From positions 52,390,001 through 52,454,000 of the forward strand of contig CM060731.1 of assembly GCA_030704615.1 (NCBI GenBank): a stretch of DNA of 64,000 nt, read 5' to 3'. The DNA comes from Takakia lepidozioides (Eukaryota > Plantae > Bryophyta). Made by a program: the position numbers and the translations under genes. How positions within the stretch are numbered: position 1 is the stretch's first letter; each line of letters starts with the position of its first letter. The notes beneath the pieces were generated by a model. That model worked only from the letters and a program-made list of their open reading frames with translations. It did not search any database and had not been told where the DNA came from. Positions 2,340 to 46,057 of the stretch are shown here, piece by piece.

Positions 2340-4830
2340 TCTCGACTTTGTAAGATCTATGTGCTTCTAGCGACTATGCGGTTGCCGCTCTTTTTCTTCT
2401 TTCATGCTTGTCTTCATCTTTTTTTCTCAGTTTCTCCTTTGCAGCTTCCTTGCTTCCTCAAAGATGGCATCCTTTGTCTCGGCTATTCCGCTTCATAGAA
2501 GAGACCACTCCTACAGAAGAGAGCACAAGAACCGGTCTGAGGGTTCGAACAGGAGATATAATTACCCAGGCCCGGGGGTTTTAGGCAATGGTCCATTGGA
2601 CCGCAATGACCCTTTCGGTCCGCTTGCCTTCCCCTGGAAGAGACGCTCAAAGCTGGAGTGAGGCAGCATGTCATATTCGCCTGTGCTTACCTGGATATGG
2701 ACATGATTAAAGAGTACTCAAACACTCTCAAAGAGCAGGGTATCCTTGTTCACTTCCCTGGACGAGCCAGGGACAGATATTGGGCAAGATGTGGGCCTTA
2801 GAGCACTTGGGGGCTGATGGAGGCCTCACTCTACATTTTTGCATCCCTCTCGGAAGAGGATTCTACTCCATCATGTTTAATTCTGTTGATCATGCAAGCA
2901 AGGTTGTAAAGTTCAACTCCTCCCTCTCGAAGTTCAAAGTGACAATCTTTCCATGGTCGTCAGAAGGGGGCCACATGGGAGGGGTTATTTATAAACCACA
3001 AGTGATCACGCTGTCTTTTTTGCCTGGAAACTATTTATGATCTCTTCCTGAGATTGGAGCTCATTTCGGTTCTTTTGTGGGGTCCATCATGGCAAACGAT
3101 CATGAAATAACGGATCCTAGGAGTGTGGACACTGATAATGCGGCCTTCGAGATACACAGAGACAGTGGAATTCCACGCAATTAAGCTCCCTAATTTGGAC
3201 AACTCTTTTGTTTTAGTGGTGATTCAAGATGAGTTCCTCTCTGTGGTTTGTCATTTCTGTCACAAGGAGGGACATGTTAAGGCTGACTGTCTTGACATGC
3301 AAGTTAGGAATCATGATGTAGCTCCCTCTCGCAGGCTTTCTAACGTTGATGTTGTCCCACGGACTGTGCATGAGTTCTCAAGACCTTTGGTAAGGAAGCG
3401 AGCATACTCCAATTCGAGAGACTAGCCATCGGCCAAAAGGTTTTAAGGACTCCCCTTCGTCGATAAGTCCGAGGGTTTTTCTACTTACGGTCTATGATGT
3501 TTCAGCGGGTTGCTCCAGCTCAAGTCCTTCACATCCCGATATCGCTACAGCTAATTGTTCATTGACGGATCTTTTTTTCCTGGGGCCCCCTGCTCAGTCA
3601 GCATGCTTGCTTTGTCAGGTCAGACCTTGGTTTCTATTCTCGATGATTTCAGGGAATTGGACGTATGTCACAGACACTTCAGTGATACCTGCTCAGCCTG
3701 GCGGTGACCATCTCCTCTCAGGAGCCAAACGGAATGACATCAGTTTCTTCTGGATTACTCCTTTGGTTATCTTCAAATGGACTTTCAAGCCATCATTTTG
3801 TGGTTATTCCATGGGCTTCACTCGGAAACCCCCATGTGAAGCCCTGGCAAGTGTAAACTAGTCTCTTAAGGGAGAAAAGATGACAAGATATTTCTTCCTT
3901 AAGGCCAAGCAAAGGAGAGCTGCTACCACGATTAGTGCCTTCTCTAACGGTAAGGGTGCTAGCATCACCTCTTCTAAGGAGATGGCTACTTTCGCTGCCT
4001 CGTACTTCGCCAACCTATTCAGTAAGAATACCCCTGGCTCTCTGCAAGCCTCGACCAAGCAAACGGTGATTGACATTTTCCCTTCTCTCATTTCCAACGA
4101 CGACTTGCTTGGCCTCTCTGCTCCCTTCACAGTCATAGAACTGGGAGATGCCCTGAATAAACTTAGTTCTTTCAAGTCTCCAGGCTTGGATGGGCTTCTT
4201 GTGGAATTTTTTAAAACCATCTGGATGGAGTTAAATGAGGAGTTTTTGCCAATGACAATGGATATTCTGGACAAAGCTGGCATTATGCCTTCACAGCTAA
4301 GCCAGGGCTCATCACTCTCATTTTAAAAAAAGGCAATAGAGATGAGATTCCTAACTACAGACCAATTACTCTCTTGAACTCAATCTACAAGATAATCGCC
4401 AAGGCATTGGCTGTTAGACTTCAAAACCTGCTGTACAAGCTGATTCGCCCTGAGCAGACTGGTTTTCTTATAAAAAGGGGGATGATCCTTGACAACGTCC
4501 TCCTAGTCAAAAAAGCCCTGCACCATACTCATGAGTCCAACCAACCTCTTGCTCTTCTTATGCTTGATTTCGAGAAAGCTTTGACAACATTGGGTGGGAG
4601 TACATGTTCCTGGCCAATGAGAAATGTGGCATATCGGGTAATTTCCTAGCATGGATCAGAATTCTGCTCTTGTCTGCCTCTAGGAAAGTTACGATCAACG
4701 GCACCCTTTCTAAACCTTTTCGTCTTTTTCGCTCTGTGAGACAGGGATCCCCTCTCTCTTGACCTTTCTTTTCCTATTTGCCGCTGATGGATTAGGCCAT
4801 CTGCACATCTCGGTTTGAGGGGCTTCACTT
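2340..4830 (+). mobile_element. Decayed L1-like LINE (ORF1 with CCHC knuckle; partial ORF2 reverse transcriptase)
   Basis: ORF1 fragments LGRGFYSIMF...IFPWS and CHFCHKEGHVKADC. RT-region motifs KSPGLDGLLVEFFKTIW, YRPITLLNSIYKIIAKALAVRL, EQTGF, LDFEKA and RQGSPLS. Many stops and frameshifts. Boundaries approximate. Confidence 0.9.
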
Positions 4831-6778: not shown

Positions 6779-9700
6779 TTATTTAGGAAGACTAATATAA
6801 AACTTGGTGTTGCTATAATCTTCCAGCAGAGGGTTGAAACCATCCTGTGTTTTGGTCTTTTTAGTGTCAGCACACTGCTCCATAAACTCAGCTGAGGAGA
6901 CCTGACACAGCCCACCCTGCATCTTCATTAGCCCCTGCTTTACCGGTGTTTAGCAACAACCACTTCCAACCTAATCCATCAAACCCTAGTCGTAAGAATG
7001 AAAAAAGAGTTCAGCCTGAAATAATTTCGGGTCTGCTTTCCTAAGAGATTGCAGTTACTGAGTACAACCCAGGATCACCCAGTGAGCTTGGTTATATGCT
7101 ATGTAATTTTCTTTATAGGAGAAAAAGCTCGAGGCTGAGCCAAAAGCCCAGGCCCTCCTGAGGCCTAGTTTTTGGGCAAATCACACACAGCAGATTGATG
7201 CTTGTGTGAAGGGATTTCTAGAGGATATCTGGAAAACCCGGATTAATTCTTTATATGGAGGTAAGTCTTACTACCAACGTCAGCCCCTGACAGAGGTAGG
7301 TTCTGTCCCTTTTGTTCCCGCTCAAACTGGGCGCGGGGTCAATGGCCACAAGGCTACGGCAAACAACGTCTTATGAGTACAATTTATAGGAGAAAATGAA
7401 CTTTCATCAGGAAATGAAGTGAAATGGTACTTTATAAAGTCCGCAGAAAGCTCAAAGAGCTTATGGGACAAAGGAAAACAAGAAACAAGAAAGAGAAAGA
7501 AAAACAAAAAGTAAAGAAGTAACCCTACAGGCCTACCACTGATGACATGCGATTGCTTGTGTGTTTCCTTCCTGGGGATCCACAGTGGCTGGCAGCATAC
7601 TGATCCAAGTGTTGCAGCAGCTGGAAATCGGTCGGGAAGAAAATGTCCACATCTCCCTGCAGACCAACCCATAGTGACCACTTGTGGTCGATTCAGGTTT
7701 GACAACTTGAGCAATCTACAGGCCTTGCCAACATGAAAAGGAATGAGGCAGAAACTTTCTGATGAATGACGTATCATGGGCGTGATTTTCCCTTAAAAAA
7801 TTGAGCGGGATATGCATGCATGCTGTGGGGTCATTACACATGCATAGGTTGGCTGACCAAAATTGTTCGAAGCCCAGGGTAATCTCACACAACCCACTGT
7901 GGACTACCCCACCACCTGACATGTGACTAGCAAAACCACAATTTGCTGGATGCAAGCAGTCTCTATCACAAGTGGTGCCCGACAACAAATAACAGGAGAG
8001 ATGCTCAAGTGTACCTTCGCTTCAAGGTAAGTAGAGTGGTCCCTTGTCTGTCCCTCTTCCTGCAAACATAGATGATCACAGAGCACTCACTTGGGCATGA
8101 GCTAGTAATGTAATAGTGTAACAGGCCTTTTGAAGAATGTATCTACTTGAGTGACATCTTGTTGGGAATGGTCCTTTCATGAATTGGCTCACACCTACTT
8201 TGGACTGAAGACCACTCAGCAATCCATACTCAAATCGCAACCATCGTTAAGCTTGGTCAACGTCCATGCAGGAGACATCACTTTGGGCTTCCACCACTTG
8301 CAAGCTGCACGTGTTTCTGTCTTGTGACTGACCTACTCGTGAGTGTAATAACTTGTCATTTGACATATGGCTCCTGAAGACCTGGGATGTAAACTCTTCT
8401 GACATCCACATATCTAACTGCCTGACTTGTGAGCAACAATGTCATTTCCTGAGCTTACTCTTGCTGGTTGCGAACAAACAAGACTGGGGGAGTTTATTAC
8501 CTTGCTAGCCACAAGGGGAGCCCGGGCTCCAGTAACTTTGACTCCGGGAAGGCAACTGAAGTCAGCTGCAATGAGGACCATATTGGGACGTGTCCTGTGT
8601 AAATTCTCTAGCAATTGCTGCATTTTTCACCACCCCACAAAAAGGTCCTTGCTTAAAACATAAGATGATGATTGGAAGGTACCCAAAGACAAGGTATAAG
8701 AGAGATTCATCTTGACATGTTAACTACACTTAGAAAAATAGAGTCTTTATATTCTGGACTTAATATTTTCTATGTCTCAAACCCCTGCTCACAAATCAAG
8801 ATACATACAACACACTCCATTTTTTAGCTTTCAAAAGCAGTCACTCAAGTGCAACCATAGTTGGTACCAGGCAACCCGTAGGTATCCAAGAAAGCTCTGA
8901 AAGGGAGATGAATCTAGAGAGAGTGGTCCGTGCTGCTGAGACCAGCCTTGCCAAAGAGCTGCTGCCATCTGAACTTTGTGCAATCACATCCAAGCAACGC
9001 TCGATCAGAGGGTCTTTGAGAATCCGCCGTTCTTCTGTAGTACGCAAATTAATCCTGGAACACCCACATTTGCCTCATGGACCACTCAATTGAGAAGCTG
9101 TCTGTATGGTTGCACATGAAAGAATTATTCAACCTCAAGGAAAAGTTTATTCTCTAATCCCCAACTGGCTTCAACCTACCGTAGGTACTACTCCAGCCAG
9201 TCTGCAACTACATAAGGCATCTCAATGATAGCTGTGGCTTCCCTGCTGTACGTTGCAGATGCAAGCTCTTTTTGGCGGCAATACATGCTGGAGGTCCTTC
9301 GAAAATTGCCAACAGCAATTGCTTGTACTGTTGCTGTGAAATGAAATGCTGAATGAAGGTCGTCAGGTCTTTCAGCCCACCCAACTTGGGGCTTTTCTTT
9401 GGGTGGGCTGGACGTGTCTCTATCTGTGGAGTCCCAAGTTGCAAAGGAGTCTCTGCATCAAGCAGATATATGTGCAAGTGACCATGCTTACCAACGGAGA
9501 AAGAGTCCACCACCATATGAATATCTAGAAACACACCATTGCTGTTCAATTAGAGCGGAGCGGTTCCTGAAGGACCGTACCCAGAATAGCTGTGAGAGAC
9601 CCAAGTTTCCATCCATGCTGATGTAGGCGTCTCTCTGTAAACTAGGTCATGTGGTAAATTGTCCAGCACCTGAAATGATAACAGGTGATATGAAGAAATT

Positions 9701-12700
9701 GTTAGAAAACTAGACCTGTCTCACCCTAGAGATATTGACATGAAGCTTCTATTCACAAGTAGCAGTACAAAAGCTTGACAGCTGAATAATACAGGAATTA
9801 GCTGGTACTAACAAGATGAGAGCCTTGAAGCTCGCTCGCTCCCTACTACAAAGGAAAGCTAATAGAGTTGATTGTAGATGCTGGACTTCTCCTCCTCCTC
9901 CTCTCTGCAATCTAATAGGATAGCACATCAAACTACATGCTAGAAGAAGTGCGGGGCATTGCCTCAGCCTCTCCCTATATCCTACTCAGGTTCTCTGGAA
10001 CCTTCTCGTAGGAACCATCCCTAGCCGTCAAAAAACCCTAACAGTCCCCATGGTTAACTAAGTCTGAGCTGACTTTCAACAGAAATAAACAGCCCACTCA
10101 AGGTGTATACCACAGCATTAAAGCTTGCAGGGACGGGATTCAATACATACACTGTTAGCCTGTGCTTAACAATTAGGCTGGAACAAAATTGGGGACTCCT
10201 TCCAACTCATATATCATTGGGTTACATGATACCACTCCTATGGCTGACCCTGACACAGCAACTATGCAAATAATCCTTGCCAAGAATGCAACCTCAAGTT
10301 CATAGATTCTGTCTTGGGATTTCAACTCCTCACCAGCCTATATACAGAGTCAAAGTGTTGAAATTTCAATCCATCCAACTATCCCCTTCCTTCTGGAACG
10401 AGCAATGCTGGATCCCATCAAGACGGGTAATTCAGTGCCATAGGAACAGGTGCATTTCCAGGACTGTAACATTGTAAGCCACTTCCAAACAGTACATGAG
10501 GTCCAACTTTAAGTGTGACAGTCAAGTAACCATAGAGGAGAAAGAACAGACCTCAAGCATGATTACAAAGCACGTCTGCCCATCAACAGCCCCTGCTCCC
10601 ACAAAATACAGTTTGGATGAGCAAGGTAATCCTCAGAAAAGTTAGCTTTTCAACTGTCGCATTGGCATACTTTCATCCCTTTAAGGCAGTCATGTCCTTG
10701 GTGCTTTGGCTACTAGACCTTGCATGATAGCCTACTTACATGCACTAAAGAAATGGCCAAGATGCATGACCTGTAATTGCACCTACTGTGGTTTCAGCTA
10801 ACATTAGTCGATTATTGGCTACACAGGTCATTGATGACTGCCTCAGCATGGACTTGATTTCATTTGGATCACAGTCGAGCGTGGTGTCTCACAGTATATT
10901 TAAGCTAGACATTTTTGTACTAACTACAGTTACTGCCCTAAACTGCAGTTGGCAGGCATTCCCCTTCTCATGTAAAGGGTGTATCAGGCAGTATTCAAGA
11001 CAAGGTTGCCCATTACAGCTTGGCTCATCTTGTATTTGAAGTCACCTTGAAGTGTGAAACCACCTCTCCCTTTCTGGATTCCTGACTGATCTAGTTGGAC
11101 TGACTTGTAGGAAAAATGTGTACCCCATGGACTTGGGTCACTGCCACTCCCACAATTGACATGAAAGCGACGGCAATGGCTCTTCACACGGCCCACTCTG
11201 TGCTGCTGTTTCAGTGCCAGCGCAGCACTAATTTCGACTGACCTGCCACAGACCAGTTAGAAATTTCAGCTCACCTGACAAAAGTTCAGTGCACAAGCAC
11301 TTTTGCTCTGGGGAAACACTCGTGACATCTTGGAACTCACAATTACTTACCCACGTTACATCTAGGCACCTGCACAGATTAGTGACATGATGAGTCACAA
11401 ATCATCAAACAGAGACTTTTGGATTAGCTAGTCTACCTCATGGCAGAGCCCCCTAAAGGAGCCTCTGTCATAGACACAGGAAAACATTGATGCATCACAG
11501 ACCCTCGATTGTATCATGAGGTTCCAGAAGTAAAACGCCAGCACCACTCACGTGTAGCTCATGCTTTTGTAGACTGGAGGTGCCTTTGCCCTGATGTAAT
11601 CAAGAATGCCGCTAGCGCATGTGCCTGTCCCTCCCCCTATTTCATAGATCTGTTTACAAATCTTATCAGCACATATTTTTTTTTTCAAATTAAGGTCAGC
11701 TGTGGACAATAGCAAGCTTCCAAGAGACAAGATGATAGGATGATAGATATTATAGCCCTTCACGCACCTTGAGGGGTATTGTTGGATCCAATGTGCGTAG
11801 TATATACTCAGCAATGGCGTACCCATACCAGGGCTGCATAAAACAACCACATAAATATAAAACACTTGCCACATAGGCCTCACATCCAAATGAAAACACA
11901 AACAAAAATAAACTCAGCCAGTTATATATCCTTTTACTTTAAAAAAGCAGCAAAGGACAAAAAGAGTGCACCTGAAACACCTCCACAGGGGTAAACCAAG
12001 CTACCCCATTTTGCTTGTACAAGTTGTCCAGGCATTGCAGATATGCCTTTCGCCCTATCCAACATGCAGTTGCAACTATACTCTCCGTCAAATGGGCTTC
12101 TTGGTATGCACAGATCAGACCTACCTCTCCCTTGTCCCTCCCCCAACCCTCACCTCTCTCTATATATTCGATAAAAGCTATCGCCTCCTGAGCCACATTC
12201 TGGATTTTATTGTTGCATCAACTTGATGCTATGAAGAGCAGTTCATACGCCATCATTTATCTGATTTTAGGATTTTTCTTATTCCGCAAAAACGTCTGTA
12301 CCAAACATCAGACGGTAAGAATGGACAGGAATCACAACTACACTCTAGCAGTAGGTCCACCATTACCTTGAAGGAGGTTGAAGCAAATGGGTTCCATCAA
12401 GGCGCCGACTGCCTCAGCTCTTGCAGCAAAATAGCCTGAGTCAGGGTCGTACAAAGCAGAATGAATGTAGTCCCGTACCTGTAAAGCAGCCTTTCAGTTC
12501 CAGTCCGCTCCATAATGCCAGGAGCAATTTAGCGCATGGATACAACTAAATGGCCTGGCCTCAGGGCCTTGATGTGGTTGACCCCCACAGATGGTTCCTT
12601 AGTAGAGCAGTCTTATTTCCCTCCTGCTGTTCGCCCAGGATATCTACTGCTATATAAGCTGTTGCAGGATGGATGTAAAAGATAATGTTTGAGCTGTAAG

Positions 12701-14780: not shown

Positions 14781-15749
14781 TCGATGATTTTTAAACTCGA
14801 AGCAAAACATGACATGTATGACATAGCCATATGTGTCATCGTGTGGGGATCAGTCTGCATGACCATGTGGCGATCGCTCTCCATGCCTATCGCCATTCTC
14901 GCCCCCTACTCCTACTGCCTTTCACGATGATTTGGAAGACCTGCCCTATCGCTGCTCCACCTGCACAAACAGGTCCCTTTTTCTAAGTATCTCTCTCTCC
15001 TTCTCTCTCTTTCTAGAGATGGAAGTGAAATGCTCAAAGTCAGGGCTCCACGAGAGCCTCTGCAATATTTGAGGTCGTTGATGACCTCAATTGGAAGGGC
15101 TCTCAGGTACATGTTTATTCATGTGGAGGAACTCGATTCTGAACCCAGATGCATACAAAGACTTTGTACCTAGCGCCCCCTTTGGGGTTTCTGTTCTTCA
15201 AATACGATTTTCCATAGATGAGGTTATAAAGATGGGTGTTTAATGTAAAGAGATTGGGCTCCATGAGAGCTTTTGAGATTGAGGTCGTTGACGACATGAG
15301 CAGAGCTAAGTTATAAGAGTTATGCCTCTCTACATTCTTGGATTCTAAGGACACGTGTAGAGCTGTGAGGGAGGGTTGCAAACGCCTTGCGAAAGCATAG
15401 TCTAAGTGTGGAGGGGGCTCTACAAATGGGTGCGGTGACGCACCCATTTGCAAGGCTCCATCTGAGGTTGGGGTTGTGGTTTTTCATTGCTTCTTTCACA
15501 TATTCAAAATACTTCGCATTGTGTATTTTTGAGTTCAAACATACAAATCTCTTACACTTCTCATGTTGTTGGTAGAGGCATGCAGAGGAGGATGATTGCT
15601 TGGATAAAGTCTTAAATGTTGCTTTGTTGGCTCTGGCCCTTCTGGGCAGAGACTTTGCATCATGTTGAAGTCAATGGAGAAAATGTGGTCAACAGAACTT
15701 ACACCGTGTCAAGAGAGTGATTGGTCTAAAAAAGCTCTTAAGTATAAAC

Positions 15750-16316
15750 TAGTGTTGCACCGGTATAGAGGGTATTGCACAGGTATATGCACTGGTATCA
15801 AATTCAAATTTTCTCGCCTAAATTCAAATGTACCCCCTTAAATTGTGACGTCTGGGCATCGCACTTTGCGACCCCCGGGCGTGCTAATTCTGCATTGCAA
15901 AGTAGTTTTTTTTTTTTTTTGGCAAGCCGCGACGGTCGGGCGTCGCTAATCCCATTTACCGGCGGCAACGCCCGACACCTCCTGCGACGTGTTTTTTTGG
16001 TCCGGGGGTCGCAAGCCACGACGCCCTGGCGTCGCGTAGCCCGCCACCCTGCGTGCGCCACGTTTTTTTTTTTTGATTGAAAAAAAAAAAAAAAAAAAAA
16101 AAAAAACGAACCAGAGCGTCGCCAAAACCCACGCCCGGATGTGGCGGAGCCCGACTCTTGCTCCCGCTGTTTTTTTTTGCCACGCCCAATAGTCGCTTGC
16201 AGCGACGCACTGGCATCGCTTGGCGTACCACCCGGCTTACGCCACGTGTCTTTGGGTTTTAGGATGGGACTCCCAGGCAGGTTAGAAAAAAAAAAGGATG
16301 CAACGCCGCGCTGGCG
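15750..16316. mobile_element. GC-rich subterminal-repeat segment of a DNA transposon (CACTA-like) truncating the DNMT ORF
   Basis: Repeated GCGAC/GTCGC motifs with A/T homopolymers, in the same style as 60300-60900 and 28444-28800. Abrupt junction with DNMT coding sequence at 16316/16317. Confidence 0.55.
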
Positions 16317-19300
16317 TTGACCCAACACATATCGGCGTGATGCCTCTGACAGAGCTGGCACAGCTGTAGTGCCCGTGGCAAATCCTATTGCCCGCTCTCG
16401 CTCATCTGCATTGGGCTCCACCAATTGCTGTAGCACATTGTCCCAAATCAACCCAGGACCATTGTCTCAAAAAGCATGAGACGAGGGAAAGCTCATGAGC
16501 GTAGGCAAGGCCGCACGTGGCTGCCCCACTCGATTTACCACTGCTAGAGGTGGACGGTCATCATGTCGCACCTTCTGTGGTTGCCTCCCTTGGTCCAAAA
16601 TGCCCTCAACTGTGAGATTGGGTGGCCGTTGAATGGAATCGTATGCTCTCTTGAGCAGCTCTGGTGGTGCAAGATTGGTCCACCACAATCGAGGTCGATG
16701 CGCTCGTGATCCCACCGCTGCTGCATCCAATAGCACCGCCGATCCAATCCAAGACCGCACCTGATGCACACTGGCCATAACCCTGGCCCGAGAGTCCCTC
16801 ATAAGATAAACATTCTCCAAAATATAGGCTAGAGGTTGCACTTGCCTCGTCTGCAAGTCACGCAACACTCTTAACATCTCCCAAAACAAATGCGATCGTG
16901 CATCATGCAAGCCGTTCCCATGACCTGCGGGAGAGTGTCCTTGGCAAGGCCATCCAGCTATCACCAAGTCAATGGCACCATGCCGGTCCAAATAATCCGC
17001 CCCCAACAAGGTAATGTCTGCTGGCAAGGCCTTTTGATACCCTTGAATTGCTGAGAGAGGCAACAACTCAGGATATCGGTGTGTGAGCAAGGCGATGTGG
17101 CGCATAGAAATACGTCGAGCTATCTCATCCTTCTCCACATACAAGTACTTGCGTACTTTAATCCCAGCTTGCAACACTCCTGCAAGTCCAGTGCTCATGC
17201 CTCCAAACAGGTCTAGCAAACAAATCCCTGAGTCAGGTGGTTGCCAGGTAATGGGCACTGTATCCAAAAGAGCTAACTGAGGAGGTCCAGGTGATGTCAC
17301 TGAACTCCCCTCACTCACCAATGGATACGCCTCCTGCCATGCTTGGTGCACACACTCGCCTACTACTCGATGCAAATTCCTAACTGTACCCCACAGTGGA
17401 ATATGAACAGACACATGAGGAAGCAAATCAGCCTTGTATGCCAATTGTTTGTCCTCATCAGGTGGTGGCCTATCAGCTGCATGGCTATTGCCCTCCAAGA
17501 GCTCACCACCCCAAGCCACCACCCCTGAGAATGCAGCCAATGTGGGCATCATGTTCCTATGATCCACCGCTACATTCCCAATAAACCGCACTGGGAGCAG
17601 TGCACGCCGGCCATCCCCTGACTGCCATTCCGGCCTGTAGGATGTCGTTTCCTCCCAAAAGTCCAAAGTAAAGCCCATCGGGTATAACACAGCCCCACCA
17701 ACAAGTACATCATAAGACATCGCATCCGTAACAATGGCTTTAGCTCTCATGACAAAGCCATCTGTAGGATGATCTGGCTGCAATCGAATGAAGAGCTCAT
17801 GGCGTGTAATCCCTCGTGTCTTCTCTGAACTGCCCAAAGATGTTTGAATTTGGAAAGGGCAAGGCTCCAAATCCGCCTCTGTAAGACCCAAGCCTGCAAT
17901 TGCTGCTCTCCCCAACATCAATGGCTGTGCTCCCGAGTCCAACAAGACCCGTAGTGGCCTATACCTCCTCCCGGCCGGGCCACCCAATTGAAACACACCA
18001 TCCTGATTGTCCACCAGGACTACCCCAGGAGTCATCATATTACGTTCAATGGCTGGTCTAGCTGGCAACTCTTGCAACCTTGCAGCTGCCGCTTGCCATG
18101 GCGCAGCTGTGGTTGTCTTCACCCTTGAATCTAGGGCATCCATGCACTGCACCTGATCCGCTATCCCCGCAAATAGTGCCGATGCATCACCACTCTCACA
18201 GAGTCTAGCTGCCAGTCTAAACACTGCAGCTGGCCGTATCCCCGGCATTGCAATTGTCGTGGCAGAAAACAATGGAGCTTGGCAAATTTCCGTAGCCGCC
18301 CCCAACAATGTACTGGCTGCACCTTGCTTTGCTGCACCACCCACTGGCATTTCTTGAGCCACACCAATTCTCCCCAATGACACTCGTGGCTCTATTTCTG
18401 ACACACTTGGGCGAGCGGGTGCCATCGATGGCATAGTTGGCACTGTCTCAGCCAATGTGAAAGACTGTGGAAGCCTTGTTTGCCGACTTGCTTCCCCTCT
18501 TTGTGGATCAAAATCCACATTCGCTCCTCTTGGCTCAAGAGCACGCGTTGCTGCTCGAGTGACAGCAGCTGCAGAGTCCATATACAATGGTCCTGCAAGT
18601 GCGGCTCCACACATGAAGCATATACCAATCTGGTCTTCCCTAGGCATAGGAGGTTGTGCAGGTGGGGCTTGAACCTCAGGCCTTGGAGCTAGCGCAACAT
18701 GAGTAGTGGCCATGGTAGCAAGACGTTGTTCTAGCTGGGCAAGCCTATCTACCATGCATTGGTCAGGACCTTGACCGTGACCTTGTGCTCCTTGGTTTTG
18801 GTTACGACCTCCACCACGACCTCTACCTCCTCTACCTCTCTGGACTACATTGCCTCGTCCTCGGCCACCATTGTTCCCTTGGAATTGGCCTGGCCGTAGC
18901 TCAGGATGCAAGTCATAACAATGGGCCTCTTCATGCCCATACTTGCCACAATGCCCACATTGTAGTTGTGTAGGTTGTGCCTGTGCCTGTGTCTGTGCAC
19001 AACTGGGTTAAAGGCAGGCACAGGTGTTGGTGCTGCAGCAGGAGCTTGGGTGGACTTCCCAGCTCCTGTTCCAGTTGATGTCCCACTGCTGCTTGCAGAA
19101 GCTGCCGGTGTAGCTACCGGTGTCACCACTGCCCTTGTGCCTCTGGTGACGGAGACATAGTCAGGTGACCAATACACCCGCCATTCCTCAATCTCCACCT
19201 CATGTCCCCGCCTAAACGCATGGTAGTCATCCATGGGCGGCCCCTCAAGGTGCTGAGATAGTTCCACGCCATAAAAGGCGTAAACAGTTGTGGATTGCGC

Positions 19301-19600
19301 ATCTGCTGCAAATCACACCAACTATCAAACTCCTATATGAAATCATCAAGCTCGATGGTGCCCACAGCTCCAGAGTACCGACATGGCCCCTTGATAGCTC
19401 CATACATTTCCTCCATCGTATCCCACAACAATGGCACGGAAATGGCTTGCACCCTCGGCGAGAATCCTCCTAACTCCGAGTCTGAACCTTCCTCAGAAGA
19501 CACTGAAGGTGAAGGTGGCCTAAACCGCACACCTCGTCTTGTATACCCACTAGTATCGCTGGTGCTCGTACCGGCACTCTCCTCACCAACTGGTGGCACC
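16317..19600 (-). pseudogene. Retrotransposon polyprotein: Gag - CCHC knuckle - aspartic protease - C5 cytosine DNA methyltransferase (disrupted, 3' truncated)
   Basis: Gag N-terminus IELDDFI*EFDSWCDLQQ...LSQHLEGPPMDDY. Knuckle CGHCGKYGHEEAHC (18918-18959) is in frame with the 814-aa ORF. Protease VLLDSGAQ (17931-17939) and YDVLVGG. MTase motifs I LDLFGGMSTG, II YVEKD, IV IAGWPCQGHSPAG (PCQ 16941-16949), VI ILENV (16809-16817) and VIII AHRPRLWWTN. After one TGA come IX EPNADERERAIGF and the start of X, RRYVLGQ. Confidence 0.92.
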
Positions 19601-22600
19601 TCCGTGATGAAAACTCACAACCACACCCTGTTGTAAACCTGTCTCTAATCCCCCTTTCCACAAGGTAACCGGGTAGAGAACCTGTTGCGGCTTATGGCTT
19701 AGACTACTAGGTTCGTAACATAAACCTGCACCTGCATCCACCGCAAGCACCCATATGGTCTGTTGGTCATCAACCCAGCCTCACCATAAGATAAACAATG
19801 GTGGTCTGACTGGTCATCATCCCAGCCTCACCACCAACAACATGCTCTAGGATTGGCCGGTGCCCAACCTCCTATGAAAACAAGCACCCACACAAAAGTG
19901 ACATGGCGCACAGTCAAGCATGCAGGTGTGGGGGGGATCCAAACACAAGAAAATCAAGACAGTAACTCCCCCACACCAAAAAAAACACTCCACAGTGTTG
20001 CTCTTGCAAGGACACCCCAGCCCAAACCCAGACTGACTCTTGCCTCCACCTATGGAAAGGTTTTGGCCTACATAGAGGGTGGAAAACTACGAGGAAGAGA
20101 GACTAAAGCAATTCCTAATCCCAGAATGCTCTCATCCCACTAGTCTCCCCCTATCTCTAAACGCTCTTGCTCATGACCAACAGACATAACTACCTTCCAG
20201 GGTCTCTCAAATAACTCTCCAAGAGCCCTCAAGATGTCTCTCAAACAATCTCACTAAGGCCCCCAAAGCCTGCCAAATCTTGGCCCTCAAGGACCCAAAT
20301 AGTCCTTCAACCAGTCACCAAAGACTCCTCAAGCTCGCCAAATAGGCCTCCAAGGACACCAAACAGCCCTCCAAACAGCCTTCCAAAGGCTCCAAAAACT
20401 TACCAAATATTGGCCTTCAAAGACCCCAAATGGTCCTCCACATAGCCTTCCAAAGGCTCCAAAAACTTGCCAAAACTTGGTCTTCAAGGACCGCAAATAG
20501 TCCTCCAAACAGTCATCCAAATACCTCTTCAAGAGCTCTTCAAGTGTCTTACCAAAAGCTCCTCAAAAGACCCCCCAAATTTCCTTCAAAGGCAATACTC
20601 CTCCAGATACACCCTAGATGCCATACACTTTTAATGAATACGTATGGTAGGCAAAGTCTCTCCACTTGTATCCATACACTGTTCTCAAAAGGGTATGGTG
20701 GGACAGAGGGTTCCATACATTGTTTTCAAAAGTGTATGGTGGGGCAGAGGGAGCCCATACTCAGTTTCTTGAAGAGTATGGAGACTAGGGTTTGTAGAGT
20801 ATAGTAAGAAACACCTTCTTCATGGTATCTTCCCCCCCAACATGCAATCAAGATTGCATTATCTTACTTTGCAATGCATTCATCCCAAATTGACAAGTTC
20901 CTCTTGATCTCCTTGGAACTCATAGCAAGCTAATGTGCCCAATGACAAGCGTCAAGCCTTGCTTGAATTTGAATTTTGTATGTCATCTTCCATATGCTTT
21001 CCCTTGCATGGGCTAGTCACACACACTTCCACCTCTTAACCTAGGTGTTGTCTTCATTCATCATAATATTGTGTATCCACACCTCTATTCAAGAGCTCAT
21101 CTTCTCAAACTTGAAGTCACAAGCCCAAAGAGCATGCTCCACATAAGCATCACTTGCTGATCAACCATCCACCACAAAACTTAAGCAAAAAAGGAATGAA
21201 TACATGAGCTTCACCTTCCCCTTCCTTGTCTTGTCACATGCTAATGTATGGTTGAAGTTGCTATGCATGCCGTGAGCCACAATCTCCTTTCTTCATGAAG
21301 ACCACCTCCAATGATCTCCCACATGTGCTCCAAGCTCTTCAATACTCTAGGCTTGGTTTCACATCATCATGGATAGAATTCTCACCCACATGCTTCCCTT
21401 TGGAGTCATCTTAAGCTTGTTGATGCTCTCCAAATGGTTGCTTTTGTTGTCTTCAAGCCCTAGCCTATGTAGCTCCTTGGCTTTTCTTCCACAAAATGCA
21501 CCACCTCATATACAATGAATGAACTTGCTCACTTCACCTTCTGGCTCTCCTCAAGCTTGAATTGGAAGCCACACTTGGAAAACATGCTCCACACATGCGC
21601 CACTTGCTTCACCAAGAGCAATCCAAGAACTCATAGAACTAGCAAAAGCACTCCTTTCTAGCACCACCTTTACTTGCTTGTTTGTCAACCAAATGAAACC
21701 CCACTTGGCTTCATTTCACCACGGATAGAACAACCACTTCTTAGCTTTTCTTGAGCTACTTAATGCTCCTCAAGCTACCCTTGTTGTACTCCTCCTATGG
21801 TGTTTCCAACCCAAGCATGTGCTGCTCTTTGGCTTCTCTTTCACACCATGAACAAGTACTAGAGCTTGCTCTTGAAACCCTAGTGTCTATCTTCTCCACA
21901 CACAAGACGCTTATCTTATAATGCAAGAGCACTTTTCCAAGCTCTCCACCTCTATAGAGAAAAAGTAATGCTTCTCAAACCCTAACATCCATGTTCTTCA
22001 TGCCACAAGGATTTTTCTTTGCAACACCTGCAACACCTTGCAACACAAGAGCTCTCTACCAAGCTCTCTCCAACACACAAGTGCTAAACTAACCCTTACA
22101 CTCCGCATTCACAAGCTGTAGAATAAAACTAAGATCAATCCTAAAAGAGGATCAATTAGCTCTAAGGTTTGTTCGCTAGGGAAAGCACACAATTGAATTG
22201 CTATGTCGTGATTAGAACACTATATCTACTTCTAATTGTCTCCCAACAATAAATGTCTTAATATTCATCTCAATTAAATTCCTCTCGTATTGATCTGCAC
22301 GCTTCATCAAATAATCCTCATCTTTTTCTTTCACACAAAATTCTTCCCATTAAACTCCAACATCTCATCACATTAACATGAAGCTTACATAGTATTTCAT
22401 CAGATCTTTGTCTCATCACACTACTCATATTCTTCTTATCTCTTACTTAAGCTACTGAAAACGACAAACTAACATCTCTTGTGCTAGGGCCTCGGCACTC
22501 TCGCTCGAATGACCATGAATACATCGATTCAGCGGAACTCATAGTGTCCTACTCTAACTACCATAATTACCTAGCACTGATTCAATGGGCTAACATCTAT

Positions 22601-23118: not shown

Positions 23119-24800
23119 TTATCTGTGTGCGTTCTCGCAAACATAATCTCTTGAAGGAATTAGCGATATAGTATCGAATGAATGTTTAGCACCAAGCTCC
23201 TTCTTAAATGTTGAGATGAACTCCAAGGCAATTTCATAATCTTGTAGACTAGAAATCCAATTGTTTTCAGAGAAGACCGCATCACCATTTGTTGATTGTA
23301 TCATCACAGCTAATCCAAAACTGTGAACCTTTTGTTGATCATTATTCGAAATTTGAAATGTACCGCATACATGAAACCATCTAAGCTCTTTCTTCAATTG
23401 TCCAATCGATGGATCGGGTTGCTTCACCAATTGTGCATCCAATAGACTCGGATAGTCCACCAAAATCTTGATTTCCCATTGAAACTTTATAATTGCCCAA
23501 ATTATCTTGGTTCTCAATTTCCCAAATTGAAATACCATCTGTAAAAAGAAATTAGAAACTCTTGGAAAAAGTCTCATAATGAAAGTTTGTTGGAAAAAAT
23601 CAGCTTCCAACTTTTTTGGCTGATTTATAACACATAGTCCTTCACAATCAATGATGCTCTTAGATATATCAATTGGTTGTAAATTATTCACTATCATCAC
23701 TTTGGCAATATTGGCCTTATATCCATCCAAAAGGTCCAATTGTTCTTCAATCATGGGATAATTATTAACCATTTTCTTGGTCTTCTTTGTGGTCATGACT
23801 TTCACAATTGTATCAATTTCAAAAGAAATGAAAATATCATCCCCTCCATGGTAACACACTTGCATTGTTGTTTGTAAGCACAATTGAAGCAATTTGTCAC
23901 AATCACCATTCCAACTTGAGTTTTCCTCAATGGCCTTCAATGTATCAAAATTTGAACACACATCCAAATTGATCTCCTCCAAAGAAATTTGCGATTTTTG
24001 ATAATTGCAAGAATGTAGCTTTGCCTCAAAAATTGTGTTTTCTTGCGAATTCCTCAATTGAGTGAATTAGTCCCTTATTTGCACGACCTCCAAAGCAATT
24101 TCTTTACATTGTTGAATAGTCATTGCATTATCTTGCTCAAAACTTACTTTCTCAGATAAGAGAGTGGCAACTTGATCATCAAGAAATTGCATCTTCATGT
24201 ATAAGAGTTGATTTTCTTCTTGCAAAATTTCATTATCCAGTAATGATTTCTCTTTCTTAATCTTCTATCAGAGTATCCTCCCCTGACAACAAATACATTG
24301 GGCACTGTACGCTAGATAATGTGTCCTGCTCACAGCAATGTCTCGAGGGGAATATCACCGACGTTAATATGAGATTATTTTCAAAATCTGCTGAGTAGAA
24401 TCGTCACAGGGCATATGAGAGCGTAGAATAAACAAACCATTGTATCTAACTTTGTCTTCAAGGTCGAAATCTCACTTTGAAAATGCTCCTCATTTCTTTG
24501 CAGCAAAGCTTCGGCTTCAAGATCTTTTGCCTTGATCTCTTCCAAATTTGTCGTTTGAGCCAAATTCAATTGAACAGTCAGATCATGATTCCTTCCCTCC
24601 AACTCTTTGAGTTTGGCCTCCAAATTCAAAATATCCATGCCTAAATTACCAATTCGAAGTACAAGATCTGTCTCAATAGGTGTCATCCAGGAATTTGCCT
24701 CTACAGACCGTGAAAGATTTAAGGTTTCCAACCTATTTACTTCACTATGAAGACCACAATTCTCTCTTTGAAGTTGCTGAATCACACTCTGAAAGTTCAC
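23119..24800 (-). pseudogene. Interrupted long coiled-coil ORF of unknown function (TE accessory ORF)
   Basis: 139-aa and 312-aa ORFs joined by E/Q/L/K heptad-rich coding-like sequence, broken by a ~170 bp insertion and a stop. No introns apparent. Confidence 0.5.
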
Positions 24801-24992
24801 ATAATAATTATAAAGATATGCTTCCCTAGGGGTTGTAGGGTTGATGTCTTAATGTAATATAAAACTAAGATCAATCCCAAAAGAAAAGATCAATTAGTTC
24901 TAAGGTTCGTTCGCTGGGGAAAGCACTATACGACTAATACATAATGATGCCAGACTATTCTATCTCTCTCTATCCCTTCTTCTAAACAACTT

Positions 24993-28809: not shown

Positions 28810-31527
28810 CCTAGAATTGTTCCAGCAAACACCCCAACCCTACTTATCACACTAGTTCTTATGCTGACTTGCGTCTGCTTCCAACAGGCATTAACCTTTT
28901 TGCCTGGATTGTTCCACCATTGACTGGGGTCAGAACCGTATTCATTCCAGAGCTTCTCCACATCTCTATTATCTGTTTTTCAATACTTTCCTGTCGACCA
29001 CATTGGCAGTAACATGTCAAAATCACTCCAACACCACCATAGTTCCACCAACGAGCTCACTTGTAGAATTCAACATGAAAATTTAGGGACGACTCTGATA
29101 GCAGGGGAATTCAGGGCGAAATATATTGAAGAAGGTACCTTCATTAGCAGTGGGCCTTGTTCTATCAATTGTGCTGCTGCCATTGCTGTTTCCAGTTGAC
29201 CATCTACCCACTCGTAGCCGTTGTGCTATTGAAGAAGGTTGCCCCCCTTCCCCCATCATTTGATCATAGGTCTCCAAAGCCTCTATACCATGTCCCTACT
29301 GTGCATACCCTGCAAGCATCGCGTTCCATGACACCACATTTGGTTCAGCCATAGTGTTGAAAACTCCCTTTGCATCCTTAATGCACCCATATTTGGCATA
29401 GACGTCCACCAGGGGAGTGTTCAGGATGACATCTGGTACAATTCCAACTTTGACGATGTCACCATGGACCTCTTTCCCCTTTTCCAGAGGTCCCAGGTTT
29501 GCACACGCATTGCAAACATGCGTAAGCGTGATGTGGTTGGGCTTCACCCCTTTGCGCAGCATTTGCTCATAGGTCGCCAAAGCATTCCTACCACACCCAT
29601 GCTTGGTAAATCCTGCCAACATTATATTCCACATGATCAAAGATCGCTAAGGCATTATGTAGAAATATTGGCGAGCATCCATGGTGCTTCCGCACTTAAC
29701 ATACATGTTGACAAGGGTGTTGAGTAGAAAAAACATTAGGCATGAATCCACTTTGGATAATGTGAGTGTGCACCTGATTCCAGCTTCCAGACCTAGAGCC
29801 TTTGTCAGTCTACCTGCCTCACAAAGCATCTTCACATGCCCCGCAGAAAAGGCATTGTGGGCTCTCTCTCTTGATCCTCTTTCAGAAGCTGCGGTCATGG
29901 TTGAGGACGTGCGTGATTTTATCAACTGTGTCGCTACAGCTGTTGCCTTTAGTTGACCATCTACCCATTTAGGTTTCTTGTAGCTATTGATCCATATGGA
30001 ATCACAGGTAATCTGGAGCTTGAAGTCCAGCCCTCTTGGATGAATCTGGACCCACACTCTATCCCTTCTTCTTGAGCTATCCATGCCTCTGCACAAATCA
30101 TGCATTCATCTTTGCCCTTGCTGCTAGCAGCTGACATTGACAACCTAGGAAACACCCAATCACACTAGTTTCTATGCTGAATTGCGTCTGCTACTCTTTG
30201 TCATCTAATAGGCATTCAACTTTTTGCCTCGGTTGTTCCACCATTCACTGGGGTCAACAAAGTATTCATTCCACACCTTCTCCTCATCTCTGTTATCTGT
30301 TTTGGATACTTTCCTGCTGCCACATCGGCAGTTACTTGTCATAGTCATTCCAAACCACCACAGATCCACCCAACGAGCTAACTTACAGAATTCAATATGC
30401 ATCTCAGGGCCGAGTCTGATGAGAGGGCAAAACAGGCTGAAATAGGTCAAAGAAGAAGGTGCCCTCACCACATTGTCCTTGACAACTCAATATGTAAATT
30501 CAGGGCCGAGTCTGATGAGAGGGAAAAACAGGCTGAAATAGGTCGAAGAAGAAGGTGCCCTCACCACATTCTCCAAGGCCTCCATACCACGCCCCTGCTG
30601 TGAACACCCTGCAAACATCGTGTTCCACGTGATGAAAGATCGTTGAGGCATTCTGTTGAACACTTGGTGAGCATCCATGATGCTCCCGCACATAACATAC
30701 ATGTTGACAAGGGTGTTGAGTAGAAAAATATTTGGCGTGCACTTTGGATAATATGAGTGTGCACCTGCTTTCTAGCTTCAAGGCCTTTCATCTTGATGCA
30801 CTTATGCAAGAGACAGACATACGTATCTGAATATGCTGAAATGCCTCCTTGGTTTAAAGTCAGTAGAGCCTCTTTCAGTCTGCCTGCCTCACAAAGCATC
30901 TTCACATGCCCATAAGTGCCAGAAGAGGCATTGTGGACTCCCTCTCTTGATTTTCTTCCAGAAGCTGTGGTCATGGTTGAGGTGCCCTGACTTTATCAAC
31001 TGTGCCGCTGCAGCTGCTGCCTTTGGCGATGCAACCATGCACCTCTTTGCATCTGGTAATCTGACAAGCATTCACCTTGGTACGATTTCAGCTCTGAGCC
31101 CTTTTCCAAAGCTGCCAGGGCAGTGTTCAGATTGACATTTGGTACAATTCCAGCTTTGATGATATCCCCATGCACCTTTTTGCCCTTCTCCAGGCCAGCT
31201 GCCAGGCATGCACAAGCTTTGCAAATGCACACAAACATGATGTGCTTCCCCCATCATTTGCTCATAGCTCTCCAAAGCCTCCATTCCACATCCCTGCTGT
31301 GCATACCCTGCAAGCACATCATATCGCACTCCACGACACCACATGTCATCCAGCCATAGTGTCGAACACTCCCTTTGCATCCTAGATGCACCCACATTTT
31401 GCAAACATGTCCACCAGGGTATTGTTCAGAATGTCATCTGGTACAATTCCAGCTCTGAAGATGTCGCCATGCACCTCTTTCCCCATTTCCAAAGCTGTCA
31501 GGGCAGTTGTCAAGTTATTTTACCACT
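28810..31527 (-). pseudogene. Scrambled tandem pseudogene cluster: PLS-class PPR repeats plus OSB-type PDF motifs
   Basis: PPR P-L-S text (LNTLVNMYVKCGS..DA, WNIMLAGFTKHGCGRNAL, LEKGKEVHGDI, VVSWNAMLAGYAQ) recurs 3 times. PDF motif halves WNEYFVDPSEWWNNRGKK (30221-30275) and HPRGLDFKLQIT..IWI...PKWV (29960-30045). Many stops, frameshifts and local duplications. Confidence 0.85.
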
Positions 31528-33787: not shown

Positions 33788-34770
33788 TGTTAGAGGACTG
33801 TCGGGGACTTAGACACTTATACGGGATCTGTAGGGTACCCTTAATTTTTGCACAGACTGAGACCAAGAGGAACCTTAGGGGTGACAGCAGCGCACTGTAG
33901 AGGGGGGTTACACAGCCCAACACAGTCGTCACAGTCGTCACAGCCAACACAGCCAACACAGCCCGTCACAGTCGTCACAGCTGACACAGCCAACACAGCC
34001 AACACAGCCCGTCACAGTCGTCACAGCCGACACAGCCCGGCACAGCCACACAGCCAGTCACAGCCCGACACAGCCAAACACAGTCGCACAGCCAGTCACA
34101 GCCCGTCACAGTTTCACACAGCCAGTCACAGCTTGACACAGCTGTCACGATCATAGGGAACGAAGAGTAGGACAGGGAACGACTGTGGGGAACAACACCT
34201 GCGAAGGGAACATGTTAGTTCACAGACGACGGTTAGTGAGGGAAACGGTTAGAACCGCGGATAGGAAAATAAAGGGAGAAACGGGGAATTGAGGGATCAT
34301 TCGGATGAGGACTTCTTGGTGATAGAGGAGAGGGGATCGGGTAGAGATGAGGAACGGAAGTGAAGATAGAGAGATGATGAGTAGATGCTTGATATAGGCA
34401 AGGCTGTAATGATATTGTAGAGCAGATTAGAGACACAATGGCTTCGGCCTGATACCTGATAAATCATAATCGGATACTTTTACGATACAATCACACTGTG
34501 TAGAGAGATCTGAGTGAAGCTGTGAAATGAATGGATGAGCTGATGGAATCCAATAGATTGATAAAGCAAAGTGATACTTAATTATCAATGGTAAGATAGC
34601 TAACATGAATACCAAAAGGAAAACAAATAGGAAACACCCCCATGATACACTAGCTGTAGGTCATGACTGATTGTTCTGCGCGGGCTGAGTACTTAGAGAT
34701 TTCCAACTCTTCTATCTTGGAGTTTCCGCCTCGAATAGCGAAGGGATGGGTGAGTAAAAGCCGCGCGACA
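33788..34770 (+). repeat. 5' LTR (contains CACAG-rich minisatellite)
   Basis: TG...CA ends; matches 46058-47102. Confidence 0.95.
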
Positions 34771-35358
34771 TTTGGCGACCATACTGGGGAACTGGGACAT
34801 GAACAACCAGATGTGACAGGCATCTGGTGGGATCATGGTGGATGGACCATTAAAGAATTTGAAGTGAATCAAATTCCCTATGGAACGAAGGAAGAAAGAT
34901 TGTCCAAACAATTCTTTCAAAGGTTCTTGGAATTGCCAGACGGTTGTAAAGAAAATATTCTTAAACGAGTGCATGATGCTGATCCAGAATGGGATCTGGA
35001 GAAAGGAGTGATAAAGATTTATCAGGTAGCCTGTAGAGGAAGAACACGTTGGTTACCAACATTGGTTTATGTGATAGCATTGCTATCCATTAAACGAGTA
35101 GAGTTTGAAGGCTGGGAAGAAAGAAAGGTGAATGTTTATACTCATATGCATGAAGAGCTGGTACTGGTAAAGAATTGGATTCCAAAGGATATTTTGTGGA
35201 TCAAACTCACACCAAGAACAGCTTTTCAGACTTGTTTGCCATATGGTTATATGGTAACGGAGACTTCAAGTATAGCCAAGGGTGCATTGAAGCTTGAAAG
35301 AAACCCAGGCATATACGAGAGATATTACAGAAGAGAGTTTTGGTTATTGCCACATTAA
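34663..35358 (+). CDS. Extra ORF upstream of gag, unknown function
   Basis: 231-codon open frame starting in U5 and stopping 21 nt before the gag ATG. The true start is uncertain. Confidence 0.5.
   Translation: MTDCSARAEYLEISNSSILEFPPRIAKGWVSKSRATFGDHTGELGHEQPDVTGIWWDHGGWTIKEFEVNQIPYGTKEERLSKQFFQRFLELPDGCKENILKRVHDADPEWDLEKGVIKIYQVACRGRTRWLPTLVYVIALLSIKRVEFEGWEERKVNVYTHMHEELVLVKNWIPKDILWIKLTPRTAFQTCLPYGYMVTETSSIAKGALKLERNPGIYERYYRREFWLLPH
34773..34790 (+). promoter_or_regulatory. Primer binding site
   Basis: TGGCGACCATACTGGGGA begins 2 nt after the LTR end and resembles Athila/Tat/Ogre-type PBSs. Confidence 0.8.
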
Positions 35359-35379
35359 AAGAAATGAAAGACATGGGAC

Positions 35380-41300: not shown

Positions 41301-41577
41301 CACCGCCATGTTACAAACCATTAACAAAGAAATGCTGGGAAGAGTCAATGCAAATAAGTTGAAGGGGTACAGTGGTATCCATGACAAACCCCTGCAGCAT
41401 GATTTGCATGTTGAACCGCAAGAGCAGTCACGGGCTGCACCAGTGTTACGAACGGAGTATGGAACACTTGTCGCTAGGCCCAGCATATATGACCAGGGTG
41501 GGCAAAACAAACGTGACACATCCTATCACAGCCCATCCAAGGCAAAGCACAGCCTATCACAGCCCATCACGACGTGA
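35380..41577 (+). pseudogene. gag-pol of gypsy element (single-base frameshifts, possibly assembly errors)
   Basis: Gag DPDVHISQF...LFPCSL...ASEWY. Knuckles CAKCQNEGHTTTEC, CTICKMDNHSTENC and CYYCNQPGHRKAAC. Protease LIDGGSGVNI. RT DGFSGYNQ, MPFGLCNAPATFQR and VFLDD. RNase H CDASGEALGAVL and YSTTEREALA. Integrase H..GHF..C..CQ, WGLDFVGP, SDQGSHF, YPQGNGQAE and WKGPY. Confidence 0.95.
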
Positions 41578-46054: not shown

Positions 46055-46057
46055 TAA

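Follow-up and report, generated by a model that had tools for sequence, protein, structure and literature searches.

The present analysis concerns a 64,000-nucleotide stretch of the moss Takakia lepidozioides genome (assembly GCA_030704615.1, contig CM060731.1, positions 52,390,001 to 52,454,000 of the forward strand), referred to throughout as the window and numbered from its first letter. Its minus strand carries a dead copy, missing its 3' part, of a high-copy Ty3/gypsy retrotransposon in which a cytosine-C5 DNA methyltransferase (DNMT) follows the protease (PR). A reading frame from 19007 to 16467 encodes 846 amino acids and ends in a stop, beyond which homology continues in the same frame to 16317. 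As described in a first-pass annotation made from the sequence letters, a Gag zinc knuckle, an RGG-rich tract, a retropepsin and an intronless methyltransferase continuous with Gag-PR all lie in this one frame. Methyltransferase motifs I, II, IV (with its PC), VI (ENV) and VIII, and past a TGA motif IX and the start of X, likewise stand in the canonical order reported there (Table 1; motif numbers follow the standard scheme). A Pfam scan of the window copy returned DNA_methylase (PF00145; E 3.8e-12, 46.7 bits where the cut-off is 22) and found no BAH, chromo, UBA or DUF3444 family, the first three having also been noted as absent on first reading. The profile search proposed there was clear for the methyltransferase but not for the Gag-PR part, in which Asp_protease_2 fell under the Pfam cut-off (E 0.041) and zf-CCHC was unmatched. 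Relatives do match zf-CCHC, three of them (P0033, P0145, P0257) exceed the Asp_protease_2 cut-off, and 117 of 128 relatives' protease domains that cover the active site contain D[ST]G[ACS].

The polyprotein of the first-pass annotation therefore stands as a Gag-PR-DNMT frame but not as an intact element: gag is frameshifted and partly deleted, pol is absent and the copy is a dead fragment. Homology to the relatives ends at 16317, inside motif X, where a different high-copy repeat takes the place of the end of open reading frame 1 (ORF1) and of everything downstream. Searches with the relatives (tblastn) found no reverse transcriptase (RT), RNase H (RH) or integrase (INT) of the DNMT element in the 64-kb window. 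A gypsy RT at 38.6-41 kb was considered as the element's own pol and rejected, being only 27-41% identical to the relatives' RT and thus part of another element. Contigs of the same organism show that most copies differ at the premature stop (~85% of depth, one run), continue past 16317 with other letters and lack the small deletion at 19261, so that these lesions belong to this copy or to a minority. Contigs of either repeat diverge at 16311-16318 and none of those listed bridges 16316/16317. Summed contig depth over the element is 1e5-5e5 compared with 52.5 in unique flank, values that support the term 'high-copy' and do not give a copy number. The adjoining repeat recurs at ~60250-60970; it is GC-rich with long A/T runs and has a CpG observed/expected ratio of 1.18, which is unusual in this CpG-poor window. 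A second fragment of the DNMT family (5' leader and start of gag, 76% identical) occupies 47325-47987 on the plus strand, between inverted arms at 46946-47102 and 48028-48184 in the centre of a large inverted duplication.

Table 1 Features of the retrotransposon copy and its edges in the window
Feature	Position	Strand	Basis or remark
5' leader	19549..20185	-	Exact 5' end not located; very high summed contig depth to ~20100; 76% match to 47325-47987
gag, 5' part, broken	19139..19548	-	One stop, one frameshift near 19261, two other frames; tblastn of relatives, 57-76% identity, frames -2/-1
Internal gag deletion of ~160 codons and further frame change	19008..19138	-	P0090 residues 148-365 versus ~58 window codons
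Gag nucleocapsid CCHC zinc knuckle	18959-18918	-	Sequence; aligns with relatives' knuckles
RGG-rich tract after the knuckle	about 18869-18804	-	Sequence
Retropepsin-type aspartic protease	17583..18065	-	Asp_protease_2 and motifs
Protease LLDSGAQ	17945-17925	-
Protease DVLVGG	17711-17694	-
Predicted DNMT3-type C5 cytosine methyltransferase, motifs I-IX and start of X	16317..17246	-	PF00145, PDB matches, model
Methyltransferase motif I	17219-17187	-
Methyltransferase motif II	17144-17127	-
Methyltransferase motif IV (AGWPCQG)	16961-16938	-
Methyltransferase motif VI (ENV)	16826-16809	-
Methyltransferase motif VIII	16703-16674	-
Premature TGA inside the methyltransferase	16469-16467	-
Methyltransferase motif IX region	16418-16380	-
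Methyltransferase motif X, start only	16328-16317	-	End missing here, complete in relatives
Different high-copy repeat in place of the ORF1 end, in-frame stop, RT-RH-INT-PHD and 3' repeats	15600..16316		Left edge approximate (depth bins)

Type of methyltransferase

The best matches in a PDB sequence search were DNMT3A, DNMT3C and DNMT3B (E 5e-11 to 3e-7), with M.HaeIII, DRM2 and M.HhaI ranking below them; the leading DNMT3 value of 5e-11 compares with 1e-4 for DRM2 and 4e-4 for M.HhaI. A profile search gave E 5e-19 for DNMT3A versus 1e-9 to 1e-7 for DRM-type chains and 1e-7 for M.HaeIII. The domain was also modelled, with X at the premature stop and loci L066 and L067 excluded from the underlying alignment, yielding a structure with pLDDT 92 and pTM 0.90. 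Foldseek ranked DNMT3A/B/C first for this model (TM 0.70 to DNMT3A). In VIA, 255 residues of the model aligned to DNMT3B (Z 25.2, root-mean-square deviation 2.6 Å), followed by DNMT3A (Z 24.2) and, with lower scores, M.MpeI (21.4), M.HhaI (19.3), DNMT2 (17-19), DNMT1 (15.9), DNMT5 (14.9) and DRM2 (10.2). DRM2 aligns to model residues 1-136 only, and the window motifs are linear and unpermuted.

By sequence and predicted fold, the window enzyme is a DNMT3-type, non-permuted C5 methyltransferase, an assignment made from profile and structure scores. The first-pass annotation had likewise preferred a DNMT3-type domain to a circularly permuted DRM, and an identity as DRM was rejected on the linear motif order and the absence of a UBA domain. 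Host plant DNMT3 proteins (PpDNMT3a/b, MpDNMT3b) share the catalytic domain and its linear motifs (PMC6453930; bioRxiv 2021.02.12.428880). They differ in carrying DUF3444 (PMC6453930), which neither the window copy nor the complete relatives have, and the K. nitens host DNMT3 gene is multi-exonic (PMC5890265), whereas the window enzyme is intronless and fused to Gag-PR. A host plant DNMT3 gene was set aside on these grounds.

Relatives, domain order and the stop after ORF1

A protease-DNMT query retrieved 55 proteins of similar length and three longer ones, the best full-coverage matches being 55-60% identical. The set includes many genes of Marchantia polymorpha as well as proteins of Calypogeia fissa and of three Sphagnum species. 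A search of 50%-identity representatives gave 197 matches at E < 1e-30; among 20 looked up of the 150 listed were Closterium, Klebsormidium nitens, Mesostigma viride and Scenedesmus. The PR-DNMT junction is therefore not peculiar to the window locus: dozens of proteins and loci, drawn from independent genomes, share it, and family members retain the DNMT domain. Viral contigs held only distant methyltransferases (25-50% identity over short segments), so that no viral donor was found among them, and a protein atlas search returned only generic phage methylase clusters.

The protein set comprised 287 stored sequences, near-duplicates included. PR-DNMT without RT was found in 87 of these, 65 were DNMT-only fragments and 13 had RT after DNMT, some being Marchantia or Sphagnum gene models. 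A further arrangement, with DNMT after RH and/or before INT and usually a C-terminal PHD, was present in 74. It characterises a large and diverse sister group, the Scenedesmus-type clade (43 tree rows, e.g. P0003, P0158, P0160, P0170 and loci L061, L063, L066, L067) with DNMT between RH and INT, a PHD finger and sometimes a G-patch, for which Scenedesmus is the sole named host. Many members of this clade have EC for PC in motif IV, weakening or abolishing the Pfam match. Whole elements were studied in 71 metagenome loci, which have the order Gag-CCHC-PR-DNMT and then RT-RH-INT-PHD; RT lies downstream of DNMT in 44 of them and in the same frame in 34. Relatives thus possess the Ty3/gypsy order Gag-PR-RT-RH-INT, of which the window copy has Gag-PR only. 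The order PR-DNMT-RT-RH-INT that the first-pass annotation proposed looking for does occur in relatives, but a single in-frame stop parts DNMT from RT.

On the sequence evidence, ORF1 of the closest relatives reads Gag-PR-DNMT and so ends with the DNMT, with one in-frame stop before RT-RH-INT-PHD. The stop was at the same place in all 43 scorable loci (33 TAG, 10 TAA), the junction being unscorable in 27 of 70 (10 without the DNMT end, 17 without the anchor peptide); the scored junctions amount to about five independent lineages. CAR-YY followed the stop in 42 of the 43, compared with 15 of 1771 background stop triplets, and the full CAR-YYA in five (L001, L044, L045, L048, L070), compared with 7 of 1771. 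Locus L045 is open throughout, with 1369 codons, one TAG and 1047 codons. The first methionine after the stop lies at codon 3, 5, 14 or 48, or is absent within 50 codons, depending on lineage. Folding of the RNA 3' of the stop gave a weak signal in five lineages (z -1.4 to -2.7 relative to mononucleotide shuffles). Judged from protein sequence, many of the proteins from Marchantia, the Calypogeia cluster and K. nitens likewise end soon after DNMT. Because the stop separates Gag-PR-DNMT from RT-RH-INT-PHD, the DNMT is not a Pol domain in the usual sense, and because the stop follows it, it is encoded ahead of the likely recoding site, with the abundant product.

CAR-YYA 3' of UAG is the established readthrough signal of tobacco mosaic virus (TMV), with ~10% efficiency (PMC2754532), and retroelements need ~20 Gag per Pol (PMC2194720). 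TMV type I readthrough, SIRE1, murine leukaemia virus (MuLV) and Tca2 resemble the present junction in having an in-frame UAG with CAR-YY(A) that divides a plentiful product from a scarce one (PMC2754532, PMC2194720). Here, by contrast, the stop parts Gag-PR-DNMT from RT-RH-INT-PHD, and the readthrough is a prediction from sequence. By analogy with TMV and MuLV, the stop is likely to be read through at ~5-10%.

Trees of RT (quick search) and DNMT (FastTree) from 55 elements agree in their main groups and in many of their pairs, from which it follows that the enzyme travelled with its RT. RT and DNMT distances were correlated (Mantel r 0.68, 0/2000 permutations) and 25 of 55 elements had the same nearest neighbour, both values being inflated by kinship. 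In the DNMT tree, with five viral enzymes as outgroup, the window copy falls in a group with Marchantia, Calypogeia and metagenome-locus sequences (99% local support) and, together with K. nitens P0239, in one 35-row group (only 81% local support). With the K. nitens protein GAQ93235.1 among the matches and sharing its CCHC-PR-DNMT order, the window element appears to be of the same lineage as the Klebsormidium element and not a separate land-plant capture.

The catalytic Cys is present in 168, the motif VI Glu in 174 and the motif VIII RxR in 166 of 188 near-full domains (near-duplicates included), and all three are kept across the three architectures. In the one unsaturated between-subfamily pair, L044/L045 (dS 0.25), dN/dS was 0.13 for DNMT and 0.11 for the protease. 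DNMT values against L048 were 0.10-0.12, and those between families 0.11-0.27 with saturated dS; the window copy differs from eight relatives by pN 0.21-0.38 and pS 0.69-0.80. Neutral evolution of the methyltransferase, raised in the first-pass annotation as a point to be checked, is not what these values suggest, and the domain appears to be under purifying selection between families.

The kind of element is known. KnitGypsy-Dnmt3 of Klebsormidium nitens was described as having its DNMT within the Pol ORF, gained in the lineage of that species (de Mendoza 2018, PMC5890265). It shares with the present family the gypsy domains, an intronless unpermuted DNMT3-like domain, purifying selection (Ka/Ks < 0.2) and DIRS-like split repeats. 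The K. nitens protein GAQ93235.1, 35% identical over 257 amino acids, has the order CCHC-PR-DNMT and ends just after DNMT. The window's clade is distinct within the group by its 99% local support with liverwort and peat-locus sequences. The main text of PMC5890265 gives no land-plant copies, readthrough stop, self-priming, target duplication or RH-DNMT-INT form, and later papers cite streptophyte Gypsy-DNMT3 without naming land plants in the passages concerned (PMC12344493; bioRxiv 10.64898/2026.05.21.726589). SymbioDIRS-Dnmt3 and SymbioLINE-Dnmt of Symbiodinium are also retrotransposon-borne C5 methyltransferases (PMC5890265) but have a tyrosine recombinase or LINE backbone, unlike the relatives described here with their protease, rve integrase and 4-bp duplications. 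SymbioDIRS-Dnmt3 has A-coding-B-A-B repeats and showed de novo CG methylation in yeast (PMC5890265). EpiLTRs of Cymbomonas and Euglena combine a cytosine methyltransferase with a chromatin reader in elements with long terminal repeats (LTRs). Their DNMT is sister to DNMT4 and accompanied by DAM and a chromodomain, and their authors call them distinct from streptophyte Gypsy-DNMT3 (bioRxiv 10.64898/2026.05.21.726589). In the literature searched we found no land-plant DNMT-bearing gypsy, no readthrough at a DNMT/RT junction, no split-repeat gypsy besides that of PMC5890265 and no RH-DNMT-INT-PHD form, although subscription papers, Repbase and supplements may hold such reports. What is added here to the known kind of element is land-plant copies, an ORF1-ending DNMT, a stop with CAR-YY context and the RH-DNMT-INT form, together with the 4-bp target duplications and probable self-priming signal of relatives.

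Terminal repeats, priming and neighbouring sequence

Three independent insertions among the metagenome loci (L025, L038, L039/L047), 9.1-9.2 kb long, have the layout A1 (337 bp), internal region, G-rich tract, B1 (115 bp), A2 and B2. Their ends are TG...CA with 4-bp target duplications, one copy having an altered left end. At the B1|A2 junction, two terminal motifs meet head to tail with two bases between them, an arrangement present in nine of 71 loci and three lineages. The relatives have neither two full direct LTRs nor a TGG-type tRNA primer site after A1. Instead, 11 bases after A1 are complementary to a segment ~31 nt past the TATA box (9-11 of 11 in 10 of 16 A1 copies), the other six copies being deleted or changed at this complementary pair. 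Locus L045 shows the same arrangement with a 16-nt pair whose sequence is quite different. The self-primed elements Tf1/Sushi and plant Tcn1 (PMC6317226) resemble the present family in lacking a tRNA-type site after the left repeat and in having a segment, 11-16 nt long here, that can pair with sequence ~30 nt past the TATA box. They differ from it in having a chromodomain and not a PHD after integrase, and the terminal repeats here are split and permuted. In the window copy itself, whose 3' end is lost, a search identified no A-type terminus, no other termini and no self-priming site; a 13-nt inverted pair (20185-20173 with 19770-19758) is no more than a candidate signal.

We favour, with some reserve, a route in which the RNA self-primes and A...B-A-B arises from a two-LTR circle integrated at an internal B|A attachment site. 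Reverse transcription would yield ordinary B-A LTRs, the ends would be joined into a circle, and integrase would insert the circle at the B|A of one LTR. DIRS-like template switching is the alternative source of this layout. A DIRS/PAT retrotransposon as such was rejected, since the relatives have an rve integrase with H2C2 and a protease, and the two ORFs of L045 fill its coding region.

Elsewhere in the window, a lower-copy repeat beginning at 22202-22204 opens with a 7-base motif that is shared with the B end of the DNMT family. Nearby, a 72-bp segment at 22117-22188 recurs 2.7 kb away at 24853-24926, with two minus-strand ORFs between the copies (23119-24066 and 24381-24848). Another gypsy element spans ~33800-47100 on the plus strand, with gag at 35.6-38.6 kb, pol at 38.6-41.6 kb and long extra ORFs after integrase at 42.3-46.0 kb; its termini are rich in 9-10 bp CACAGCC repeats and no DNMT was seen in it. 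A ~6-kb inverted duplication of the 3' half of another gypsy element (~40290-46140 and 49020-54880, 94-99% identical in pieces) adjoins an N gap at 55.3-55.8 kb and may be real fold-back DNA or an assembly artefact. The minus strand at ~7500-12500 holds an intron-rich host gene that we take to resemble NDUFAF7/MidA-type methyltransferases. Several degenerate PPR gene fragments, presumably of the PLS type, are duplicated at 82-90% identity (29200-31500 on the minus strand, 61975-62590 on the plus strand). A search with one PPR fragment returned 12 matches of land-plant type at 26-47% identity, none of them close. On the plus strand, 58266-59340 presumably represents a fragment of a CACTA transposase and 3862-4326 one of a LINE ORF2.

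Proposed mechanism, alternatives and meaning

Our preferred account, which we hold to be reasonably probable, is that ORF1 encodes Gag-PR-DNMT, that low-frequency readthrough yields RT-RH-INT-PHD and that DNMT, produced in amounts like those of capsid protein, likely acts inside the particle to methylate the cDNA of the element itself. Element RNA would be translated to Gag-PR-DNMT, and a few per cent of ribosomes would pass the stop to produce RT, RH and the integrase-PHD. The protease probably frees the domains; release of the enzyme in this way, already suggested in the first-pass annotation, is predicted with somewhat better than even confidence. That the enzyme is catalytically active on DNA is a prediction in which we have good confidence. 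We are evenly divided on the final step, in which the abundant DNMT would act mainly on nascent cDNA and each new copy would be marked or protected on arrival.

Several observations weigh against this account. Most of the scored junctions (36 of 43) come from one family with CAA-CCC, and one more has CAA-CCT, neither being the full consensus; the CAA-CCC family also has an ATG two codons past the stop. P0002 and P0152 carry DNMT and RT in a single open frame and the Scenedesmus-type clade has DNMT between RH and INT, so that a capsid-level DNMT is not required in the wider group. The window lacks the junction and both termini, and for these features the account draws on relatives whose DNMT is 47-67% identical. 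Most between-family dS is saturated, and dN/dS reaches 0.5-0.75 within the large decayed family, where RT values are also raised (0.33-0.56 among decayed sister copies). The K. nitens enzyme gave no methylation in yeast, a result that its authors regard as inconclusive (PMC5890265). Finally, CpG observed/expected is 0.47 in the element versus 0.23 in the neighbouring DNMT-less gypsy and 0.27-0.99 in relatives, and CpG depletion beyond that of the host, as a sign of self-methylation, was seen neither in the window element nor in the relatives.

Pol might instead come from RNA spliced to an acceptor at the TAG, or from ribosomes that re-initiate at an ATG close by; DNMT would still end ORF1. The large family has a T-rich run before its TAG in addition to the early ATG, some Marchantia gene models join DNMT and RT across the stop (P0008, P0009, P0013, P0020), and a comparable stop in Tca2 failed to promote readthrough (PMC2194720). 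We nevertheless consider this unlikely, because 34 of 44 loci stay in frame across the stop, CAR-YY is retained in lineages with otherwise unlike flanks, the first methionine varies in position and pyrimidines make up a share of only 0.43-0.60 upstream. TAA, found in 7 of 26 copies, would destroy the acceptor, but this rate does not stand out from that at other TAG sites (mean 0.14, 95th percentile 0.35) and is not decisive. It is doubtful, though somewhat less so, that the enzyme acts after integration or on host DNA together with the PHD-integrase, methylating the insertion site or other copies and thereby dampening the element and limiting harm to the host. The PHD finger on integrase in both main architectures, the position of DNMT directly before integrase in the Scenedesmus-type clade, the pairing of chromatin reader and catalytic domain in host DNMT3s (PMC12344493) and the self-limitation raised by de Mendoza 2018 (PMC5890265) agree with such a role. 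In the window's clade, however, the stop leaves DNMT with Gag and apart from integrase, and the C>T/G>A excess of decayed copies at CG and CHG (0.16-0.20 versus 0.06 at CHH) is the pattern of ordinary host silencing with no special footprint.

The yeast result and the absent CpG footprint would also suit a domain kept for a non-catalytic task, such as binding or closing cDNA or shaping the particle, or for RNA methylation, and the predicted capsid-level amounts would suit binding. The conserved catalytic residues across all three architectures and a modelled fold nearer DNMT3 than DNMT2 speak against such roles, which are improbable in our view. As for a chance fusion, a captured host gene or a misassembly at the window locus, the copy is broken and its junction at 16316/16317 unbridged, as expected between two repeats. 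The recurrence of the same protease-DNMT fusion across independent genomes, and an intronless gene without the DUF3444 of plant host DNMT3s (PMC6453930), render this exceedingly improbable and, for the PR-DNMT fusion itself, refute it.

With the preferred account of a capsid-level, ORF1-ending DNMT in mind, a broader picture can be drawn, which we offer tentatively and consider rather unlikely to hold in full. An ancient gypsy lineage spanning green plants (chlorophytes, Mesostigma, Klebsormidium, Zygnematophyceae, liverworts and mosses) would have kept one captured DNMT3 since before land plants, shifting its place in the polyprotein. The land-plant branch would combine an enzyme brought to capsid stoichiometry through amber readthrough with self-primed RNA and a DDE integrase inserting circular cDNA at an internal attachment site, and copies would arrive self-methylated. 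If true, thousands of copies would supply non-seed plants with a second, so far unrecognised, source of de novo methylation. Five methyltransferases are listed for Marchantia (PMC5784723), and element copies are left out of such bryophyte gene counts.

The function of retrotransposon-borne DNMTs has been open since 2018, the published hosts being hard to work with. It becomes testable because the family has many annotated copies in Marchantia polymorpha, a genetic model in which methylation mutants show de-repressed transposons (bioRxiv 10.1101/363937). The position of the stop predicts an enzyme made about as often as capsid protein, of which we found no mention in the literature searched, and an integrase-using element with DIRS-like split ends raises the question of how its cDNA is integrated. 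The window element is less surprising than first thought, since the Klebsormidium element is a relative; its interest now lies in a family that spans green plants, with a predicted readthrough switch, unusual ends and a presence in Marchantia.

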